A DNA stretch of 64,000 bases. Origin: an uncultured candidatus Porisulfidus sp. GTDB lineage: Bacteria > Pseudomonadota > Gammaproteobacteria > Poriferisulfidales > Poriferisulfidaceae. Each line of letters begins with the position of its first letter. The stretch's first letter is position 1. The stretch is from the NCBI GenBank assembly GCA_965204575.1, contig OZ241993.1:256001-320000 (forward strand), written 5' to 3'. Positions 4,107 to 13,603 of this stretch are shown here, one piece after another. The notes beneath the pieces are model-generated. The model saw nothing but the letters and a program-made list of their open reading frames with translations. It was not told the DNA's origin and made no database searches. The position numbers were made by a program, and so were the translations under genes.

Positions 4107-5480
4107 ATGCTCCACCTGCACGACACCGCAACCCGCAGGAAGGTTGCCTTCGCCCCGCTCGACCCGGAGCGCGTCACCTTGTACGTCTGCGGCCCCACCG
4201 TCTACGACCACATCCATATCGGCAACGCCCGCCCGCTGGTCGTGTTCGACGTGCTGGTCCGCGTGTTGCGATCCCTCTATCCCCAGGTCATCTATGCCCG
4301 CAACCTGACCGACATCGACGACAAGATCCTGGATCGGGCCGAACAGGAGAATTGCCCGTACGACGAACTGACCGCCCGCTACATCGAGGCATTCCACGAG
4401 GTGTGCGCCGCTCTCGGAGGCCTAGAGATCGACCTGGAGCCGCGTGCAACCGAAACCATCCCGGCCATGCTGGAGATGATCCAGACCCTGTTGGATTCGG
4501 ATCACGCCTATGAAGCGGACGGACACATCCTGTTCGCGGTGGACAGTTTCGACGGGTACGGCGAACTGTCCGGGCGGCGGGTGGAGGAAATGCACCCCGG
4601 GGCCCGGGTAGAAGTAGCCGAATACAAGCGCAATCCGGCGGATTTCGTGCTGTGGAAGCCTTCAACGCCGAAACAACCGGGCTGGGACAGCCCGTTCGGG
4701 CGGGGCCGGCCAGGCTGGCACCTGGAGTGCTCGTGCATGATCGCGCATCATCTCGGCCCGACCATCGACATCCACGGCGGCGGTCAGGACCTGGTGTTCC
4801 CGCACCACGAGAACGAGCGCGCGCAGAGTTGTTGCGCTCATCCCGGCGAGTCGTTCGTCCGGCTGTGGATGCATAACGGCTATGTCACGGTCGACGGCGA
4901 AAAAATGTCCAAGTCCATCGGCAATGTGCGCCAAGTCCGGGAGCTTCTCGATCACCATCCGGGCGAACTGCTGCGCCTCGCCCTGCTGCACGCGCATTAC
5001 CGCAAGCCGCTGGACTGGACGGATGACCTGCTCCTTCAGGCGCGTCAGATCCTGGACCGGCTGTACCGGGCCTGGCAGGATGCGGGAAGCCCGGAACCCG
5101 ACGAAACCGAGCCGGATGCGGAATTCCTGCAGGCCCTGCTTGACGACCTCAATACCCCGCTGGCCCTGCAGCACCTGCGGCACGAGGCGGCGGCCCTGGC
5201 CCATCTGCAGGGAACGCAGCGCACGGAGGCCGCCCGGCGGCTGTGCGCCGGCGCCCGGATGCTCGGCCTGTTCGGATCCGCGGCCGAAGACTGGTTCCAT
5301 GCCGGCGCGACGGCCGAGAGCCTGGACGATGCCGAGATCGAAGCCCTACTGGCCGAGCGGCAAGCCGCACGGGAAAACGGGGATTACGCGGCGGCCGACC
5401 GCATCCGCGATCAGCTGTTGGAGGCTGGAATCGCGGTGGAGGACCTAGCGGACGGCAGCCACTGGCGGCGGGTACGGTAG
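4107..5480 (+). CDS. cysS: Cysteine--tRNA ligase
   Basis: YVCGPTVYD, HIGN, GRPGWHLECS, DIHGGGQDLVFPHHENE, KMSKS. Confidence 0.98.
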   Translation: MLHLHDTATRRKVAFAPLDPERVTLYVCGPTVYDHIHIGNARPLVVFDVLVRVLRSLYPQVIYARNLTDIDDKILDRAEQENCPYDELTARYIEAFHEVCAALGGLEIDLEPRATETIPAMLEMIQTLLDSDHAYEADGHILFAVDSFDGYGELSGRRVEEMHPGARVEVAEYKRNPADFVLWKPSTPKQPGWDSPFGRGRPGWHLECSCMIAHHLGPTIDIHGGGQDLVFPHHENERAQSCCAHPGESFVRLWMHNGYVTVDGEKMSKSIGNVRQVRELLDHHPGELLRLALLHAHYRKPLDWTDDLLLQARQILDRLYRAWQDAGSPEPDETEPDAEFLQALLDDLNTPLALQHLRHEAAALAHLQGTQRTEAARRLCAGARMLGLFGSAAEDWFHAGATAESLDDAEIEALLAERQAARENGDYAAADRIRDQLLEAGIAVEDLADGSHWRRVR

Positions 5481-5511
5481 ACTGTGCGAATCAAACACTT
5501 CTCTTTGCAAA

Positions 5512-5519
5512 ATGTCTTC
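5512..5519 (+). repeat. Left 8-bp target-site duplication ATGTCTTC
   Basis: Identical to 6787-6794; both copies abut the inverted termini. Confidence 0.85.
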
Positions 5520-6786
5520 GGGAGTTATGCAGACTTGATACAGCCATGAAAGTCCATCGCACCGTCCGCTACCGCCTGCATCCCGGCTCACGCCGGAAAA
5601 ACCAGCAACTGCACGGCACCGCCGAAGCTTGTCGTTTCGTGTGGAACCACATGGTCGGCAAACTCAGGGACGAGTACGAGTTCGGAATCAAGCCGGATTT
5701 CCACTATTACTCGATGGGCAAGGTCTTCACCGTTCTGCGCCGTCACAGCTACAAGTGGTTGCAGGATTATTCGGCATATGTCGTCAAGAGTTCATTGCAA
5801 CCCATCGAGACGGCTTACAAGGAATTCTTCAAGGACGTGAAGACGGGTGGGAAACTCAACCGGAACCCCCCGCAATTCCACGGCAAGTGGACAACCAAGC
5901 CGAGTTTTCCAATCAACTATGTGTCGGCGAAGGTGACGGGAGAGAGCCTGTACGTGCAGAGAATCGGCTGGATGAAGCTGGTCGGCAACAACCCGGACCC
6001 GGACGGCGAATTCAAGTCCGGTCGCGTCTTGCAGGAATGCGGAAACTGGTACGCCTATCTCACTTACGAAGTGCAAGCCGAAGCCAGTCTCCCTCACGCC
6101 ATCAAGGAAGTGGGCATCGACCGCAATGTGAATGAAGACGGGTGGGCGGTATTATCGGACGGCACGAAGCATCCGGGGCCGGATTTGGAGAAGAAAACGG
6201 CACGGCGAAAACGCTACCAGCGCAAGATGGCGCGACAGGTGAAAGGGAGCAACCGCAGAAAGGTCACCAAGGTGAAGTTGCAGAAAGCATTCCGTGCGGA
6301 ATGCTTCGCCCGGTTGAACTGGGCGCACCACGTCAGCAAGAGCATTGCGTCAGAATACGATGTGGCATACATGGAGAAACTGAACATCGGGGACATGACG
6401 AAATCCGCCAAGGGAACGGTGGAGGAACCGGGTACGAACGTAAAAGCGAAGTCCGGGCTGAACCGGAAGATCCTGGCCAGCGCATGGGGCACGCTGGAGT
6501 TGTGCCTGGACTACAAGATGGAAGTGCGCCCTGTACCTCCGGCGTATACCAGCCAGACGTGCCATTCATGCGGGCACGTCGATGAGAAAAACAGAAATGG
6601 AACAGATTTCAAGTGCACCGCTTGCGGGCACGCGGACGATGCGGACGTGAACGCCGCATTGAACATTTTGGCCTTCGGGAATGGGGCGACTGGACGTGGA
6701 GACGGCGGGGTTGCCCGGTCTGAGAAGCGTCAAGAAATGGGACAATCTGGCAGGCGAGAGTCTGCCAAGTTATCTACATAAATCCC
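5520..6786 (+). mobile_element. Non-autonomous tnpB element 1 with terminal inverted repeats and 8-bp TSD (IS1595-like ends)
   Basis: Left end GGGAGTTATGCAGA (5520-5533) vs reverse complement of right end GGGATTTATGTAGA (6773-6786), 12/14; perfect ATGTCTTC direct repeat outside; only cargo is tnpB. Confidence 0.8.
5546..6781 (+). CDS. tnpB: RNA-guided endonuclease TnpB (411 aa)
   Basis: N-terminal RYRLHP...CRFVWN; RuvC motifs [20 protein letters not shown]; zinc finger CHSCG...CTACG. Confidence 0.93.
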
Positions 6787-7271: not shown

Positions 7272-10200
7272 ATGCCTTCGACCTTCCGTTTGCTGCTGAC
7301 ACGGCGGCTCGGCCCTTTCTTCTTCACCCAGCTGACCGGGGCCTACAACGACAACGTCTTCCGTAACGCGCTGGTCGTCCTGATCACCTACCGCATTACC
7401 GAACTGGCCGGATTCGGAAGCGAAGAACTGGTTGCCGCCTCCGCCGGGATCTTCCTGCTCCCTTTCCTGCTGTTCTCCGCCCTGGGCGGAAAACTGGCCG
7501 ATCACTTTCCGCGGCACCGGCTGATCCAGCACATCAAGCTCGCGGAATGCGCCCTGATGGCACTGACCTGGATCGGTTTTGCCACCGGGTCAGTCACCTT
7601 TCTGTTCGTCATCCTGTTCTTGACCGGACTGCAGTCCGCCCTGTTCGGTCCGGTGAAGTACGCCATCCTGCCGAACCTGCTGTCCCGGGCCGAACTGCTG
7701 GCCGGCAACGCCTGGATCGCGGTCGGCACGTTCATCTCCATCCTCGCCGGAAGCCTGACCGGAACTCTCGTAATGGGTGTTCCCGACGCCGCCCTGTGGG
7801 TGCCCGGCATCCTGGTGATCAGCGCCGGGGCCGGTTACCTGGCAAGCCACCGGATTCCGGCGCAGGTTCCCGCCGGCGCCGGTCTGCGGCTCTCGTTCGA
7901 GCCGTTCAGCGAAACCGCGCGGATCGTGCGAGAAGGCCTGAGCCAGCCTCGCCTGGCCTGGCTGATGCTCGCCATCAGCTGGTTCTGGATGATCGGGGTT
8001 GGCATGCTCGTTCAGTTGCCGCTGTTCGTCCGGGACGTGCTGGCCGGCAACGAGCAGGCATTGGCGGGCGCGCTTGCGATCTTCACCGTCGGCGTCGGGC
8101 TCGGTGCCCTGTTGTGCAACCGCTGGCTCGGCGGCACGGCGCGGGCGACCCTGGCACCCATATCCGCAGCGGCCTTGGGCGCCGGCTTCGTGTTGCTCAG
8201 CCTCGTTCCCCCGGCCGATGTTCCGCTTCGCGGATTCGCCGACCTGCTGGAGGACCCGCAGGCCGTAACCGCCCTCGGCATCCTGCTGGCGCTTGCCGTG
8301 GCGGGCGGTTTCTATGTTACGCCCCTGTACACCCTGGTGCAGCAGCGGGCGCCGGAGGACCGGCGCGCGCGGGTCATCGCCTGCAACAACATCCTCAATT
8401 CCATCTTCATGGCGCTGGCCTCGGCGACGTCCATCGTCATTTTCCAGTCCGGCGGCACGATCGTCACCGTGTGGCTGGCCATGGCCGCCACCGCTCTCCT
8501 GGCCGCACTGCTGTTGCTGCATTTCACGCAGGGCAGTTTCCGCCATGTCCTTTTGTGGCCGGTCGCGTCAGTCGTACTGATCACGGAAACGCCCCCGCCC
8601 GGTTCGCTGGTATTCGCCCGGCGTGGAAGCGCCTGGGTCGCCTGGGCGCTGGCTGCCACCATCCCCGGCAAACTTGAAATCCATGTTGCTCCCGCGCTGT
8701 TGCGCCGCGCGAGCCTGCGACTGCTCGCCTGCTGGGTCCGCCTGAAACCGCTGGACCCCGCGGCCCTGGACGACCAGTGGCCAGGCAATCAGGATGAACC
8801 CGCCCGCACCGTGCTGATCCTGCCGCCTTCCGGCCCCGAGGGCGAAGCTTCGCTGCTGGAATTGATGCAGACCGCCCGGGAGCGGTCCGGCCGCCCCGTC
8901 GAAGTCGCGTCCGTCAGTGACCCGGAACTCTACATGCCCCGCTTCTACCCGCGCATCCGGGTCGGGTTCGAAAACTGTCCGCTGCCGCCCCGCGCGGCCG
9001 ACGAGCCGGAAGCGCTCCGGCGCGATGCCCTCAAGATCTACGACCTGCTGTGTGAACTGGAATACCGGATGCACTGCCAGGAATGCACGGCATTGCAGTC
9101 CTTGTACGGTGCAGCCCGAAGGTTCGGGGCTGGCTATCCGATCCTGGCCGATCTGGAGCGGACCCTGACGTACCGGCAACTGCTCCAGGCGACCCACGCC
9201 GTCGCCCAGCTGCTTGAGCGGGCCCTGCCGAAGGCACAGGATACGGTCGGCATCCTGCTGCCGAACGCGACCGCCACGCCGATCACTTTTTTCGCCATGC
9301 ACGCGCTTCACCGCATCCCGGTCATGCTCAACTACACCGCCGGGCCAGCCAATGTCGCCAGTGCCTGCCGCACGGCCGGACTGACCCACGTCGTGACTTC
9401 CCGCCGGTTCGTCGAGAAGGCCGACCTTGGAGGCTTGACCGACGCCCTGGCCGGAGACTACGCCCTGCTGTGGCTGGAGGATCTGAGGCCGCAACTGAGC
9501 CTCGGCATGAAACTCAAGGCCGCCTGGCGCGCCATGCGGCCGCCCCCGAAAGGTGATCCCTCGGACCCCGCCGTAGTGCTGTTCACCTCCGGGTCGGAAG
9601 GCGAACCCAAAGGCGTCGTGCTGAGCCACCGAAACCTGCAGCGCAACCGTTGCCAGGTCCGCGCGGTGCTGAACCTGACTCCCCAGGACCACCTGCTGCT
9701 GTGCCTCCCCACCTTTCACTCGTTCGCCTTGGGCGTTGGCCTGCTGCTGCCGTTGATGGCCGGGCTGCGCTGCACCCTGTACCCCAGCCCCCTCCACTAC
9801 AAGCAGATCCCCGAACTGATCCGAAAGCACGATATCACCGTGTTCTTCTCCACCGACACGTTCCTGAACGGCTACGGGCAGGCGGCAAGCCCGGAAGACC
9901 TGCAAAGCCTGCGCTTGATCGTGGCCGGCGCCGAACCGCTCAAGCCGGGCACCCGGAAATTCTGGCAGGACCGTTTCGGTCTGACCGTCCACGAGGGCTA
10001 CGGCGTGACCGAAACCTCACCCGCGGTCAGTGCCAACACGTTTGCGTGCAACCGACCGGGCTCGGTCGGCCGCCTGATGCCGGATATCGAAGCGCGCCTG
10101 GAACCGCTGGACGACTCCCAGGACACCATCGACACCACCCGCGGGCGATTGTTTCTGCGCGGCCCGAACGTGATGTCCGGCTACTGGATGCCGGGGGAAA

Positions 10201-10607
10201 GCCGGCTATTGACCCCTCCGGAGGACGGCTGGCACGATACCGGCGACGTTGCCGAATTCGACGATGACGGATTCCTGAGCCTGCATGGCCGAGCCAAGCG
10301 GTTCGCCAAGATCGGAGGCGAGATGGTGTCGCTCGCCTACGTAGAGCAGCAGGTCAGCGAAGTCTGGCCGGAATACCGTCACATCGTCTGCGCCGTCAAC
10401 CACCCCACCCGAGGAGAGCAATTGGTCCTCATTACTGAGCATCCCGAGCCGGACCGGGGTCGGTTGAGACAGGCCCTGGGGGAACGGGGAGTGGGAGAGC
10501 TGGCGCGGCCCCGGCTGGTTTTGCCGGTCGAGGTTCTGCCGCTGCTTGGCAGCGGCAAACCGGACTTGCGGAAAGCACAGGAACTGGCGCTCTCGGTGCT
10601 ACACTAG
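7272..10607 (+). CDS. aas: LplT-like MFS transporter fused to Aas-like acyl-ACP synthetase (middle acyltransferase domain degenerate)
   Basis: N-terminal GAYNDNVFR...FGPVKYAILP MFS motifs; AMP-binding LFTSGSEGEPKGV, EGYGVTE, WHDTGD, LGSGKPD. Confidence 0.88.
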   Translation: MPSTFRLLLTRRLGPFFFTQLTGAYNDNVFRNALVVLITYRITELAGFGSEELVAASAGIFLLPFLLFSALGGKLADHFPRHRLIQHIKLAECALMALTWIGFATGSVTFLFVILFLTGLQSALFGPVKYAILPNLLSRAELLAGNAWIAVGTFISILAGSLTGTLVMGVPDAALWVPGILVISAGAGYLASHRIPAQVPAGAGLRLSFEPFSETARIVREGLSQPRLAWLMLAISWFWMIGVGMLVQLPLFVRDVLAGNEQALAGALAIFTVGVGLGALLCNRWLGGTARATLAPISAAALGAGFVLLSLVPPADVPLRGFADLLEDPQAVTALGILLALAVAGGFYVTPLYTLVQQRAPEDRRARVIACNNILNSIFMALASATSIVIFQSGGTIVTVWLAMAATALLAALLLLHFTQGSFRHVLLWPVASVVLITETPPPGSLVFARRGSAWVAWALAATIPGKLEIHVAPALLRRASLRLLACWVRLKPLDPAALDDQWPGNQDEPARTVLILPPSGPEGEASLLELMQTARERSGRPVEVASVSDPELYMPRFYPRIRVGFENCPLPPRAADEPEALRRDALKIYDLLCELEYRMHCQECTALQSLYGAARRFGAGYPILADLERTLTYRQLLQATHAVAQLLERALPKAQDTVGILLPNATATPITFFAMHALHRIPVMLNYTAGPANVASACRTAGLTHVVTSRRFVEKADLGGLTDALAGDYALLWLEDLRPQLSLGMKLKAAWRAMRPPPKGDPSDPAVVLFTSGSEGEPKGVVLSHRNLQRNRCQVRAVLNLTPQDHLLLCLPTFHSFALGVGLLLPLMAGLRCTLYPSPLHYKQIPELIRKHDITVFFSTDTFLNGYGQAASPEDLQSLRLIVAGAEPLKPGTRKFWQDRFGLTVHEGYGVTETSPAVSANTFACNRPGSVGRLMPDIEARLEPLDDSQDTIDTTRGRLFLRGPNVMSGYWMPGESRLLTPPEDGWHDTGDVAEFDDDGFLSLHGRAKRFAKIGGEMVSLAYVEQQVSEVWPEYRHIVCAVNHPTRGEQLVLITEHPEPDRGRLRQALGERGVGELARPRLVLPVEVLPLLGSGKPDLRKAQELALSVLH

Positions 10608-10770
10608 CTTTGGGGCTCATATACAATAATCCGCAAGCAGACCTTGTATATCCATTGACAGATCATCGGGGTCGCTTGACCGAACCGCGCCCGAAGGCCC
10701 GGCTCGGACAGCGGCGAACGCCCCTCCCTGTCCAGCCGCGCCAGTCCCCAACGCCAGTATGTTGAACGCG
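10592..10770 (-). ncRNA. Predicted omegaRNA of element 2 (boundaries approximate)
   Basis: Minus-strand hairpins CCGAGCCG-GGCC-TTCG-GGC-GCGGTTCGG (cUUCGg loop) and ATATACAA-GGTCTG-CTTG-CGGATT-A-TTGTATAT (gCUUGc loop). Confidence 0.5.
10604..10611 (+). repeat. Left 8-bp TSD of element 2 (CTAGCTTT)
   Basis: 7/8 match to CTAGTTTT at 12031-12038. Confidence 0.65.
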
Positions 10771-12030
10771 GCATTGATGTCCGCGTTCCCCGCGTATCCG
10801 CAGGATACGCATTCGAATCTCTCTCGCCGACGGTTCGCCTCCGCTACATGCCCGCATCGGTGGCAACGCTGGCTCGTGTACGCCGGGTCGACCGTCTCCA
10901 TCCGGTACGCCTTGTAGCCTAGCATGAAGCGCAACCGGCCCCAGCCGCTTTCCGCAATGCCTCGGTTCAGGGCGGATTTCGCGTTGATATGCTTGCCCGG
11001 CTTCTCCACCGTGCCCTTGGCCGACTTCATCATGTTCCTGATCTTCAGACCCTCCACGCAGACCGTCCCGAACCGGTTCGCCAAGTCGTGGCTGACATGG
11101 TGCCGCCAGTTGTCCCGGATGTAGGCGATCCTCCGGTACAGTTTCGCCACGATCTTTCGTTCCTTCTCGCGACGGTGCGAATTCACCTGGATGGTTTTAC
11201 CTTGTCTGGTTAGCCTAGGCTCTCCATCCGCGTCCAAAAGGGGCACCCGTTGGCGGCGGTCCATCTTTCGCTTATGCCGTTTCAGTTTTGTTTCAAGATC
11301 GGAGACGTCCGGCATGAAAATTCGGTCGGGCTCCGTGGTGGCCACGTTCCACTTCCCCATGTCCAGCCCGACCGCCTCGCCGTTGTCCTCCGGTTTCGTA
11401 TCCGGTACTTCCCAGAACACCGACACATACCACTTCCCGTTCGGAGGCTTGACCACCACGGCCTGTTTTGCCTCGCCGTAAGCCCATGGATCACCACCCT
11501 GACGGTGGATCGGCACCCAACCCACCTTGGTCACGTAGAGTTTGCCGTCCGCGATCCGCACGTTCTGCGGAATCGTGAACGAGTCGCCGTCTTCCTTGTG
11601 CTTGAACCTCGGAAAGCTACACTTGCCCTTCCTGGCTTCCTTCATGGCATCCGCATACCGTTTCAGCACATACCGCACTTCCGCATACGGCAACTCCCTC
11701 AGCCATTCGTGGCCTTCGCCGTTGCGCAGCCTCGTGAATGCCAGGCCCAGGGTGAAGAAAGTCGGCGAAGGCTTTTCGCCTTTCCCTTCTTTATAGGCTT
11801 TCATCGCATCCCGGTTCCGTCCAATGGCCCAGTTCCAGACGTAGCGGTTCGCCCCGGCGATGCCGGACAATAACTGAGCCCGGCGCAAGGTGCCGGGATA
11901 CAGGCGATAGACGGACGAACGGATCATGCAGGGATTATGCCATGCCGGAAACCGACCTGCTAAAGATGGGATAAGATATTGAATATATACGGATTATCAT
12001 GAGTCTTTCGGATTATCGTATACAATTCCA
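10612..12030 (-). mobile_element. Non-autonomous tnpB element 2 with terminal inverted repeats and near-perfect 8-bp TSD
   Basis: GGGGCTCATATACAATAATCCGCAAG (10612-10637) vs reverse complement of 12005-12030, TGGAATTGTATACGATAATCCGAAAG; inner 18 bp 16/18 identical; TSD 7/8. Confidence 0.72.
10617..11927 (-). CDS. tnpB: RNA-guided endonuclease TnpB (436 aa)
   Basis: YRLYP...NRYVWN; RuvC motifs GLDMG, CVEGL, NADINAAFNI; zinc finger CHRCG...CVSCG. Confidence 0.93.
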   Translation of the reverse strand: MIRSSVYRLYPGTLRRAQLLSGIAGANRYVWNWAIGRNRDAMKAYKEGKGEKPSPTFFTLGLAFTRLRNGEGHEWLRELPYAEVRYVLKRYADAMKEARKGKCSFPRFKHKEDGDSFTIPQNVRIADGKLYVTKVGWVPIHRQGGDPWAYGEAKQAVVVKPPNGKWYVSVFWEVPDTKPEDNGEAVGLDMGKWNVATTEPDRIFMPDVSDLETKLKRHKRKMDRRQRVPLLDADGEPRLTRQGKTIQVNSHRREKERKIVAKLYRRIAYIRDNWRHHVSHDLANRFGTVCVEGLKIRNMMKSAKGTVEKPGKHINAKSALNRGIAESGWGRLRFMLGYKAYRMETVDPAYTSQRCHRCGHVAEANRRRERFECVSCGYAGNADINAAFNILALGTGAAGQGGAFAAVRAGPSGAVRSSDPDDLSMDIQGLLADYCI

Positions 12031-12091
12031 CTAGTTTTCGAGATATAACGGTGAATACCCGCTCCTTTGGAACACCAATTGGGAGGTGCGG

Positions 12092-13603
12092 ATGCGAGAC
12101 ATAACACCAGTTCCCATGGATCTACTGCTGACCGCAGTGGACGTGCTGGCTTCGCTCTTGCTGTTCGGCATCGGGATCCTGATCCTGTTCGCGATGGTGC
12201 TCTACATCGTCGACGTCACGCAAACCCGCCACGCGGTGCGCCGCAACTATCCCGTCATCGGCCGCTTCCGGTACTGGTTCGAGCATCTGGGCGAATTCTT
12301 CCGCCAGTACTTCTTCGCCATGGACCGCGAGGAGATGCCGTTCAACCGGGCGCAGCGCTCCTGGATCTACCGCGCCAGCAAGAACCTCAGCAACACCCTG
12401 CCCTTCGGCTCCACCCGCGACCTGACGCGCCCCGGCACCGTTCTGTTCGTCAATGACCCTTACCCTGACCTCGACCAGAAGGACGTTGATCCTCCATTGC
12501 TGACCATCGGCCCGGGAACCCTGGAGCCTTACGCCACGGAACATTTCTTCCACATCTCGGCCATGAGCTACGGCGCCATCTCGAACGTCGCCGTTCAAGC
12601 GCTGTCGCACGGTGCGGCCAAGGCGGGATGCTGGCTCAATACCGGCGAGGGCGGGCTGTCGCCCTACCACCTGGAGGGAGACTGCGACCTGGTGTTCCAG
12701 ATCGGCACCGCCAACTACGGCGTGCGCGACGAGCACGGCAACTTCTCGGAGACACGTCTGCAGGAATTGGCCGAAATCCCGCAAATACGCATGTTCGAGA
12801 TCAAACTCTCGCAGGGTGCCAAGCCTGGCATGGGCGGGATCCTGCCGGGTGTCAAGGTGACCGAGGAAATCGCCCGCATCCGCGGCATTCCGGCCGGAAA
12901 GGCATCACTCAGCCCGCGGCGGCATCCCGGCATCGGCAACACTTCCGATTTGCTGGACAGGATTGCCCGGACCCGCGACCTGACCGGTAAGCCGGTCGGC
13001 TTCAAGACCGTGATCGGCTCCGAACAGATGCTGGATGACTGGCTGGATGAAATCCTGCGCCGCGGTCCCGAGTTCGCCCCGGACTTCATCACCGTCGATG
13101 GCTGCGATGGCGGCAGCGGTGCCGCCCCCATGCCGTTGCTCGACGCCGTCGGGCTGCCGCTGCGCGAAAGCCTGCCGATGGTGGTCGACCGCCTGGAGCA
13201 GGGGGGCCTTCGCGACCGCGTCCGCGTGATCGCGTCCGGCAAGCAGGTCAATCCGTCCGATGTGGCCTGGGCGCTGTGTCTGGGAGCGGATTTCGTCTGC
13301 TCGGCACGTGCGTTCATGTTCGCGCTCGGCTGCATCCAGGCCATGCAGTGCAACCGCAATACCTGCCCGACCGGCGTCACCACGCACAATCCCCGCCTGC
13401 AGCAGGGGTTGAATCCGAAGAACAAGGCCGTCCGGGTCGCGCACCTGGCCCGCAACATGGAGACGGAAGTCGCCATGATCGCGCACTCCTGCGGCGTGGC
13501 TCACCCGCGTGCGCTGAACCGCACCCACGCGCGCATCGTGCAACCCAACGGCCTGAGCATCTCGCTGCACAAGCTTTACCCGATGCCCGTCCGAACCGCC
13601 TGA
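12092..13603 (+). CDS. FMN-binding glutamate synthase family protein
   Basis: ISAMSYGA, NTGEGG, EIKLSQGAKPG, GCIQAMQCNRNTCPTGVTT; GGAGG RBS before ATG 12092. Confidence 0.9.
   Translation: MRDITPVPMDLLLTAVDVLASLLLFGIGILILFAMVLYIVDVTQTRHAVRRNYPVIGRFRYWFEHLGEFFRQYFFAMDREEMPFNRAQRSWIYRASKNLSNTLPFGSTRDLTRPGTVLFVNDPYPDLDQKDVDPPLLTIGPGTLEPYATEHFFHISAMSYGAISNVAVQALSHGAAKAGCWLNTGEGGLSPYHLEGDCDLVFQIGTANYGVRDEHGNFSETRLQELAEIPQIRMFEIKLSQGAKPGMGGILPGVKVTEEIARIRGIPAGKASLSPRRHPGIGNTSDLLDRIARTRDLTGKPVGFKTVIGSEQMLDDWLDEILRRGPEFAPDFITVDGCDGGSGAAPMPLLDAVGLPLRESLPMVVDRLEQGGLRDRVRVIASGKQVNPSDVAWALCLGADFVCSARAFMFALGCIQAMQCNRNTCPTGVTTHNPRLQQGLNPKNKAVRVAHLARNMETEVAMIAHSCGVAHPRALNRTHARIVQPNGLSISLHKLYPMPVRTA

Follow-up and report, generated by a model that had tools for sequence, protein, structure and literature searches.

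Cas12 descends from TnpB, whose biology is known from work on insertion sequences (IS) of the IS605 and IS607 types, in which scarless excision takes place beside a fixed target motif that doubles as the target-adjacent motif (TAM). Association of TnpB with DDE transposases has been known since 2023: the sections of Altae-Tran et al. (PNAS 2023; PMC10691335) drawn on here describe six DDE-associated TnpB branches (DDE-1 to DDE-6), all with inverted terminal repeats, as well as solo TnpBs that have ends like those of transposase-bearing elements and were presumably mobilised in trans, and they name only IS630. A 2026 review (PMC13565253, in the portion used here) lists ISL2, IS630 and IS1031 for the TnpB-DDE combination, and describes it as rare and of uncertain benefit. 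In eukaryotes, Fanzors reside in DNA transposons with terminal inverted repeats (TIRs) as well as target-site duplications (TSDs), according to the parts cited of Yoon et al. (2023; PMC10711439) and Bao and Jurka (2013). Here we describe a 1419-bp element at positions 10612-12030 of a 64,000-nucleotide stretch (hereafter the window) of contig OZ241993.1, from an uncultured candidatus Porisulfidus sp. The only open reading frame (ORF) of the element is tnpB. It is a variant of the DDE-associated theme and very probably a non-autonomous derivative of the IS1595 family, carrying tnpB and a putative omegaRNA scaffold, moved in trans, with its TnpB nuclease intact.

As in the DDE-TnpBs covered by those sections of PMC10691335, TnpB is encoded here inside inverted terminal repeats, with the 3' end of tnpB near the transposon end, and the element fits the category of "solo TnpB with the same ends" described there. 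Unlike in the DDE branches of that account, the ends are of IS1595 type (ISL3-type in a second tnpB family of the same genome, tnpB family 2), and an orientation-specific G stands in the flank. Our literature search, judged by title or abstract, found no paper linking TnpB with IS1595 or ISL3 beyond incidental co-mention, and the supplements of PMC10691335 may list such families. Since the element encodes no DDE_Tnp_IS1595 transposase, it is a derivative and not a strict member of IS1595; and since tnpB is its only gene, a transposase encoded elsewhere must have moved it. The element is delimited by the following features, in which left end (LE) and right end (RE) are named relative to tnpB.

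10604-10611, no strand assigned: left TSD copy, CTAGCTTT, from the sequence and from the empty sites of genomes G003 and G008, which have one CTAGTTTT.
10612-10637, minus strand: RE TIR, adjoining the 3' end of tnpB and reading GGGGCTCATATACAATAATCCGCAAG outside-in; boundary set by homology among copies A, B and C and eight genus copies.
10617-11927, minus strand: tnpB ORF of 436 amino acids, coding for a RuvC nuclease; Pfam PF12323, PF01385 and PF07282, all above cut-offs.
12005-12030, minus strand: LE TIR, reading TGGAATTGTATACGATAATCCGAAAG outside-in (CTTTCGGATTATCGTATACAATTCCA as forward letters); sequence and copy alignment.
12031-12038, no strand assigned: right TSD copy, CTAGTTTT; sequence and empty sites.

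The inverted repeat matches at 19 of 26 positions over its whole 26 bp and at 16 of 18 over the inner 18 bp, and the two flanking 8-mers are identical at 7 of 8 positions, a match whose chance at independently fixed junctions is approximately 4e-4 (25/65536). A first-pass annotation of the window had described a TIR- and TSD-bounded tnpB element with the 16/18 and 7/8 matches and a repeated motif; all of these were found again on re-reading, and paralogue boundaries and empty sites agree with the limits of the element. When the three copies in the genome (the window copy, or copy A, and copies B and C) were aligned with their flanks, homology began and ended exactly at the termini at 10612 and 12030. 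Copy B is flanked by a perfect 8-bp repeat, CTATAAAT, and the flank repeat of copy C is ambiguous. The upstream ORF (7272-10607; MFS_1 plus AMP-binding domains, aas-like) ends in a TAG at 10605-10607, within the left 8-mer, and the right-hand neighbour (ORF 12086-13603) has a glutamate-synthase domain. The empty-site search proposed in the first-pass annotation was run between these two genes: in 10 same-genus genomes their flanks are adjacent without the element, and the empty alleles have the same breakpoints. The empty sites of G003 and G008 read gtgctaca, a single 8-mer CTAGTTTT, then cgagg, and in G011, the genome nearest to this one (flank identity 95%), there is likewise one copy, in the variant form CTAGCTT. 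From the paralogue boundaries and the empty sites, the element therefore spans 10612-12030 and made an 8-bp duplication at insertion. This is a true target duplication, and the insertion step is proven by the empty sites. One later substitution accounts for the C/T mismatch of the two TSD copies, and relatives vary at this position too. Because the duplicated 8-mer contains its stop codon, the aas-like gene was left intact, as had been suggested from the sequence.

Contigs from DNA run X4 bridge both junctions, and the insertion is therefore present in the population of another sample. No empty allele was seen in the sequencing runs, in which no contig joined the flanks across the element. According to their labels, the runs containing the sequence of the window are metagenomes from sponge, marine or coral sources. 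The repeated motif of the first-pass annotation, CGGATTATC, lies at 11990-11998 and 12009-12017 and is found once more, inverted, at the opposite end of the element.

11990-12017, minus strand: GATAATCCG (tnpB strand) twice in direct orientation, at a distance of 19 bp; sequence.

The outer copy falls within the LE TIR and the inner one is subterminal, and both are retained with 0-2 changes in other family copies; they are candidates for a second transposase site or a -10-like box.

The ends of the element point to IS1595, in which the ISNwi1 subgroup has ends of the type ggnnatTAT and an 8-bp repeat. Ends starting GGGAATT(A/G)T are found in the window tnpB family and in tnpB family 3, to which the other TnpB of the window belongs, and the terminus GGGAATT also occurs on five autonomous IS1595 elements. 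Autonomous IS1595 elements (PF12762/PF12760) of the same order have GGGAATTAT... TIRs and 8-bp TSDs. A set of 17 unique sites of such elements, used as controls, all have an 8-bp TSD with at most one mismatch, in AT-rich targets. Ends with perfect 8-bp duplications were as follows.

Genome G034: IS1595 element end, GGGAATTATGTATTTAACTTGACA.
Genome G013: IS1595 element ends, GGGAATTATAGCGATTGTTTGACA and GGGAATTATGTAGGTAACTTGACA.
Genome G030: IS1595 element end, GGGAATTATATACTTAAATACATA.

A passenger-carrying form is known from genome G005, where a 2680-bp element (L152:44-2723) combines an IS1595 transposase, encoded at L152:1405-2328 on the minus strand, with a methylase-HNH passenger between perfect TIRs, GGGAATTATGTAGCAAAATCTGCAAG, and has the TSD GGCCATTT. 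Both ends of the window element share 18 of 26 positions with this TIR, and the LE of copy B shares 19 of 26. Against the IS1595 element of G030 the ends of the window family share 16-19 of 26 positions, against ISL3 ends 6-10 of 26 and against the IS1380-type end 5-8 of 26. The window element is thus like IS1595-family IS in its GGGAATTAT-type TIRs, 8-bp TSDs and AT-rich targets. Unlike autonomous IS1595, it has no PF12762 transposase, so that it cannot move itself, and its TIR is only 73% identical to that of the nearest transposase-bearing element. The mobilising transposase, acting in trans, would, judging from the end type, belong to the IS1595 family; the insertion went into an AT-rich 8-mer overlapping the stop of the aas-like gene and duplicated this 8-mer. 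The first-pass annotation was right in seeing an element bounded by TIRs and a TSD and carrying tnpB only; it had missed the IS1595-type ends and movement in trans by a DDE transposase.

Transposases with PF12762 and PF12760 were detected in 12 of the 13 same-genus genomes sampled and in 24 of the 41 genomes of the order sample, own genome included. The own-genome representative is a relic (L150:1090-2962, corresponding to G000:C1 ~1081611-1083483) with a truncated 203-amino-acid transposase, a second frame and then an N6/N4 DNA methylase, a transposase-plus-methylase layout like that of the intact G005 element. The other transposases of this genome (1.82 Mb, one contig, 98.75% complete) are three identical ISL3 copies, two IS110 families and an IS1380-like element. 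The IS110 families and the IS1380-like element (CCCCGATCTCCGAGCTA TIR, 5-6-bp repeats) were considered as movers and rejected, their ends being unrelated. With up to 4 mismatches allowed, the TIR core occurs nowhere in the genome but on copies A, B and C, apart from a related motif that other tnpB copies have at their RE.

The TnpB protein contains the HTH_OrfB_IS605, OrfB_IS605 and Cas12f1-like_TNB domains and aligns over its full length with the ISDra2 TnpB structures 8bf8, 8exa and 8h1j (E 1e-19). Residues D189, E292 and D383 and the cysteines C355, C358, C373 and C376 (CxxC..CxxC) are invariant in nine TnpBs of its own genome. The catalytic D-E-D was assigned at the sequence level, by place in the conserved GxD, xE and NAD motifs, and as judged from these residues the TnpB is a catalytically intact RNA-guided nuclease. 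The 436-437-amino-acid ORF is kept in all nine family copies checked. When five family copies were compared in 10 pairs, the ratio of nonsynonymous to synonymous substitution rates was 0.09-0.17, which shows purifying selection on TnpB, in line with the earlier suggestion that the ORF was being selected.

11934-11963, minus strand: promoter-like site TTAGCA-18-CATAAT with an upstream TG, just 5' of the tnpB ATG; consensus scan.

This promoter-like region is conserved among family copies.

The 3' part of tnpB shows a second kind of constraint. Conservation at codon positions 1, 2 and 3 is 0.94, 0.94 and 0.80 upstream of the last 140 nucleotides and 0.95, 0.96 and 0.93 within them. Since the third codon position is nearly as conserved as the others there, the constraint in this stretch is on the nucleotide sequence.

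10612-10751, minus strand: putative omegaRNA scaffold that overlaps both the 3' end of tnpB and the RE TIR; third-position conservation (0.93 against 0.80 in the rest of the ORF), a block 100% identical in 11 copies, and fold.
10592-10611, minus strand: predicted omegaRNA guide, the 20 nucleotides just 3' of the transposon end, comprising a TSD copy and the antisense of the aas-like 3' end; analogy.

A block of about 139 nucleotides is almost invariant across 11 copies, and RNAalifold gave for it a multi-stem structure in which the inner half of the RE TIR forms part of a 3' hairpin. We infer that the conserved tnpB 3' region is an omegaRNA scaffold, as the predicted fold suggests. The guide would most likely be the RE-adjoining flank, starting with the TSD copy, because the IS200/IS605 TnpB paradigm places the guide there. 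In these predicted features the element resembles the IS1341 group, a single tnpB whose guide-RNA region overlaps its 3' end. It also resembles miniature inverted-repeat transposable elements (MITEs) in having kept ends and needing a transposase in trans, and differs from them in having a selected protein gene and a predicted RNA aboard. The likeness to Fanzor transposons lies in a TnpB-type nuclease on TIR/TSD cut-and-paste elements that are often non-autonomous and, as predicted here, in a TIR within the guide-RNA scaffold (features of Fanzors as given in the cited parts of PMC10711439 and PMC13565253).

Several observations weigh against an IS1595-derived element with a working TnpB-omegaRNA module. 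No IS1595 transposase element with identical ends was found, the best match being 73% over 26 bp (G005), and a scan of 16 genus genomes with the terminus motif (up to 2 mismatches) gave no transposase-sized end pair; the matching pairs lie approximately 1.4 kb apart and are tnpB-only, save one pair of approximately 230 bp. The multi-copy genomes G011 and G005 have IS1595 transposases, and recognition of the tnpB elements by a cognate enzyme is a candidate only. Five of approximately 10 full-length family copies in the genus have no recognisable TSD, as judged by eye. Compensatory changes are seen in only 6 of 83 pairs of the RNAalifold fold, the copies being 92% identical, and the putative scaffold has no match in Rfam. 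At gathering thresholds Rfam gave, window-wide, only a tRNA, located elsewhere, and 10500-12150 had only four sub-threshold chance matches. Contigs from three RNA libraries cover 11282-11636 and 10611-10804; DNA carry-over is possible, so these are no proof of transcription.

As a separate observation, the short end pair lies at G005:C2:18740-18968, where two family-type end motifs point towards each other across approximately 230 bp; the pair is a possible MITE that derives from the same transposon and is empty.

The genome contains 16 tnpB genes or pseudogenes in three families, plus one fragment. The window family has three copies there (copy B with 89% and copy C with 80% amino acid identity) and at least 11 more in the genus, which agrees with the first-pass view of a family rather than a single event. 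The window TnpB is 41% identical to the other TnpB of the window, and the divergence reported between the two was thereby confirmed. That second protein (family 3) is encoded in an element at 5243-6781 with IS1595-type ends (tnpB ~5558-6712, plus strand; LE GGGAGTTATGCAGACTTGATAC, RE outside-in GGGATTTATGTAGATAACTTGGCAG, 8-bp duplication ATGTCTTC, without mismatch); 5' of this TSD the base is an A instead of the G. tnpB family 2 has six copies in the genome, all outside the window (G000:C1 105927, 163706, 410202, 1158533, 1453262 and 1468317). Their ends, GGGGCTTCGAGGTTTTGTGTGGAA and GGCGCTTCACGAATTTGTGTGGAA, equal the resident ISL3 ends at 20-21 of 26 positions, and an 8-bp TSD is kept in 15 of 20 genus copies. 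The ISL3-type TIR (GGCTCTTC...GTGTGGAA) is present on family 2 and not on the window element. Because family 2 carries ISL3-type ends, one small genome holds TnpB passengers on two DDE chassis.

An alignment of the nine own-genome TnpBs retrieved 80 related tnpB loci, mostly from metagenome-assembled genomes. By record title they belong to Gammaproteobacteria (including Ca. Porisulfidus), Alphaproteobacteria, Caldilineaceae, Dadabacteria/Thermodesulfobacteriota, Bacteroidota and Rhodothermaceae. Since relatives were found almost only in metagenome-assembled genomes of several phyla, and the runs are from sponge, marine and coral samples, this suggests horizontal spread of the TnpBs within one community type. 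A tblastn search with an ISL3 and two IS1595 transposases found none within 4 kb at any of the 80 loci. Unlike co-encoded DDE-TnpBs, these elements thus have no transposase near them, and the tnpB elements are accordingly read as non-autonomous DDE-transposon derivatives moved in trans. An automatic scan for termini, which required a TIR of at least 12/16 and an 8-bp TSD with no more than one mismatch, picked out 34 of 80 loci, and 3 of 80 in a control with displaced TSD windows. Among the 34 positives, 30 have GGG-type termini, with lengths of 1246-1611 bp; the remaining four go back to a single false match, internal and repeated. Three distant genomes that have fresh tnpB insertions showed similarity to IS1595 ends at the level of type only (6-7 mismatches in 24), with no exact partner; PF12762 had no match in one of the five genomes searched. 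A quick, unrooted FastTree of 83 TnpBs placed the ISL3-ended proteins in one clade (11 rows, support 100) and most others in one 66-row clade (support 97), with the window family of three outside it. From this clade pattern, the end type changed at least once in the TnpB group. A loose IS1595 label (11-mer with 2 mismatches, on both sides), which gave 53 IS1595 assignments in the tree, was discarded for its high estimated chance rate; for that reason the strict TIR-plus-TSD count of 30 of 80 was relied on.

The base that precedes the duplication on the tnpB strand sets these elements apart from transposase-only insertions.

12039, minus strand: G, the base directly 5' of the LE-side TSD on the tnpB strand; candidate last base of the TAM, from flank statistics.

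In the window copy the tnpB strand reads tctcG and then AAAACTAG. For the statistics, elements were oriented by tnpB and the counted sites all had different flanks. Among the 30 IS1595-type tnpB elements, this base was G in 25, A in four, T in one and C in none; the mirror position (+9) after the RE-side TSD was unbiased (A 10, C 9, G 5, T 6). The ISL3-ended family 2, counted genus-wide, had G in 14 of the 15 copies whose TSD is intact and in 19 of all 20 copies, with a three-base consensus near CTG, and its mirror position was again unbiased (C in 4 of 15). In the transposase-only controls, G was present at 2 of 17 IS1595 insertions and at none of seven ISL3 insertions (one of seven in the other orientation). 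A Fisher test of 39 of 45 tnpB elements against 2 of 17 controls gave p = 6e-8. The flank G is TAM-like because, in the empty allele, it stands directly 5' of the sequence that a flank-derived guide would match. We infer that the TAM is probably in the upstream flank and ends in G. This one-sided flank G, as a candidate TAM, is what is new here. In Fanzors, by the passages of PMC13565253 cited here, TSDs are short, the 3' TSD is reported to fold into the scaffold and the 5' TSD to belong to the TAM; unlike this, the TSD here is 8 bp and variable, and the conserved base lies outside it.

Our tentative reading, to which we give slightly less than even odds, is that IS1595 and ISL3 families captured TnpB-omegaRNA modules in one community, and that the one-sided G is the footprint of RNA-guided homing with a guide that starts with the TSD. 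The guide would start with the variable 8-bp TSD, and the TAM would lie in the upstream flank. TnpB with this flank-derived guide would cut alleles lacking the element, and cutting of empty alleles would favour re-copying of the element by recombination. Only insertions landing beside a TAM would persist, since TnpB would then cut the empty alleles and the element be re-copied. The less likely alternative is that the flank G reflects a target preference of transposition or a sampling artefact. The sites of insertion are rich in AT and show bias at positions within the TSD as well, and the TAM reading is purely statistical, resting on flank sequences, so that a one-sided transposase preference is a candidate explanation. 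However, the bias is one-sided and follows the orientation of tnpB, the mirror position +9 being unbiased, and the same G accompanies two unrelated end types and is absent as a bias from the 17 IS1595 and seven ISL3 transposase-only insertions.

Other movers of the window element fare worse than an IS1595-family transposase in trans. It is improbable that the resident ISL3 transposase moves it: this is the only intact DDE enzyme of the genome that makes 8-bp duplications, its three identical copies have perfect 8-bp TSDs, and tnpB family 2 clearly sits on ISL3-type ends, but the window ends share 6-10 of 26 positions with ISL3 versus 18-19 with IS1595. Still less credible is membership in the IS1341 (tnpB-only) group of IS200/IS605, with a Y1 TnpA in trans that moves the element in single-stranded form. 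In its favour are the typical TnpB protein, the hairpin predicted at the RE and the classical placing of solo tnpB elements in the IS1341 group (PMC13565253, portion cited). IS200/IS605 elements have hairpin ends, a Y1 transposase, and neither TIR nor TSD (for the latter two, same portion of the review); none of these characters is present in the window element, which has TIRs and, as the empty sites show, a TSD, and a profile search of the whole single-contig genome gave no match to the Y1 transposase PF01797, with a working positive control. An IS607-type element with a serine recombinase GG crossover, using the CGGATTATC motifs as recombinase binding sites, can be dismissed almost outright. 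IS607 ends carry several subterminal repeats, and CGGATTATC is present in two copies at one end, with a third, inverted, at the opposite end. But the genome has no serine recombinase (no match to PF00239 genome-wide, positive control working), the empty site shows an 8-bp duplication and IS607 has neither TIRs nor TSDs (PMC6188088 and PMC13565253, in the passages cited); the GG crossover that the first-pass annotation had raised against its own reading was thus not borne out.

A further transposase candidate, a weak PF01610 match at L016, was rejected, since it is a fatty-acid desaturase with a partial ISL3-like tail. The locus (L016:1483-2733, minus strand; G000:C1 ~793171-794421) codes for a 416-amino-acid desaturase whose C-terminal region matches PF01610 positions 92-196. 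Similar frames (approximately 400-490 amino acids), as a rule one per genome and rarely two, occur in 12 of the 13 same-genus genomes sampled, in 13 of 13 of family f3 and in none of 14 of families f2 and f4; they were found in most order-sample genomes of families f1 and f3. The C-terminal tail may be an exapted transposase fragment. One of the ISL3 copies lies among repeated ORFs of approximately 630 amino acids (G000:C1 ~4.4-45 kb; N-terminus ...AQAETWNIYGWQNHSW...), which are porin-like by appearance only.

The first-pass annotation had also proposed that the ends of the window element are decaying, and this did not hold: most of the TIR imperfection is native. Copies A and B, like copies in other genomes, have in common the asymmetry of the outer 8 bp, with GGGAATTG at one end and GGGGCTCA at the opposite one, and the two inner mismatches. 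Because other copies have the same asymmetry, it represents the native ends of the family, mostly with no decay in place. The first LE base is T in the window copy and G in copy B, in some other family copies and in IS1595 elements, and only this base and one TSD base look like post-insertion changes. Since the only IS1595 transposase gene of its own genome is truncated and the first LE base is off consensus, the window copy is probably stranded, that is, now immobile in its own genome.

For annotation, these results mean that solo tnpB genes are not to be assigned automatically to IS200/IS605. TnpB travels here always without a transposase, in IS1595- or ISL3-ended elements with variable 8-bp duplications, under selection and in several phyla. 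This raises the question of how guide and TAM function when the target is not fixed, and the flank statistics suggest a TAM ending in G and a guide starting with the duplication. If the homing reading is true, the natural insertion sites would be evidence that TnpB drive works with TSD-making DDE transposons in prokaryotes.

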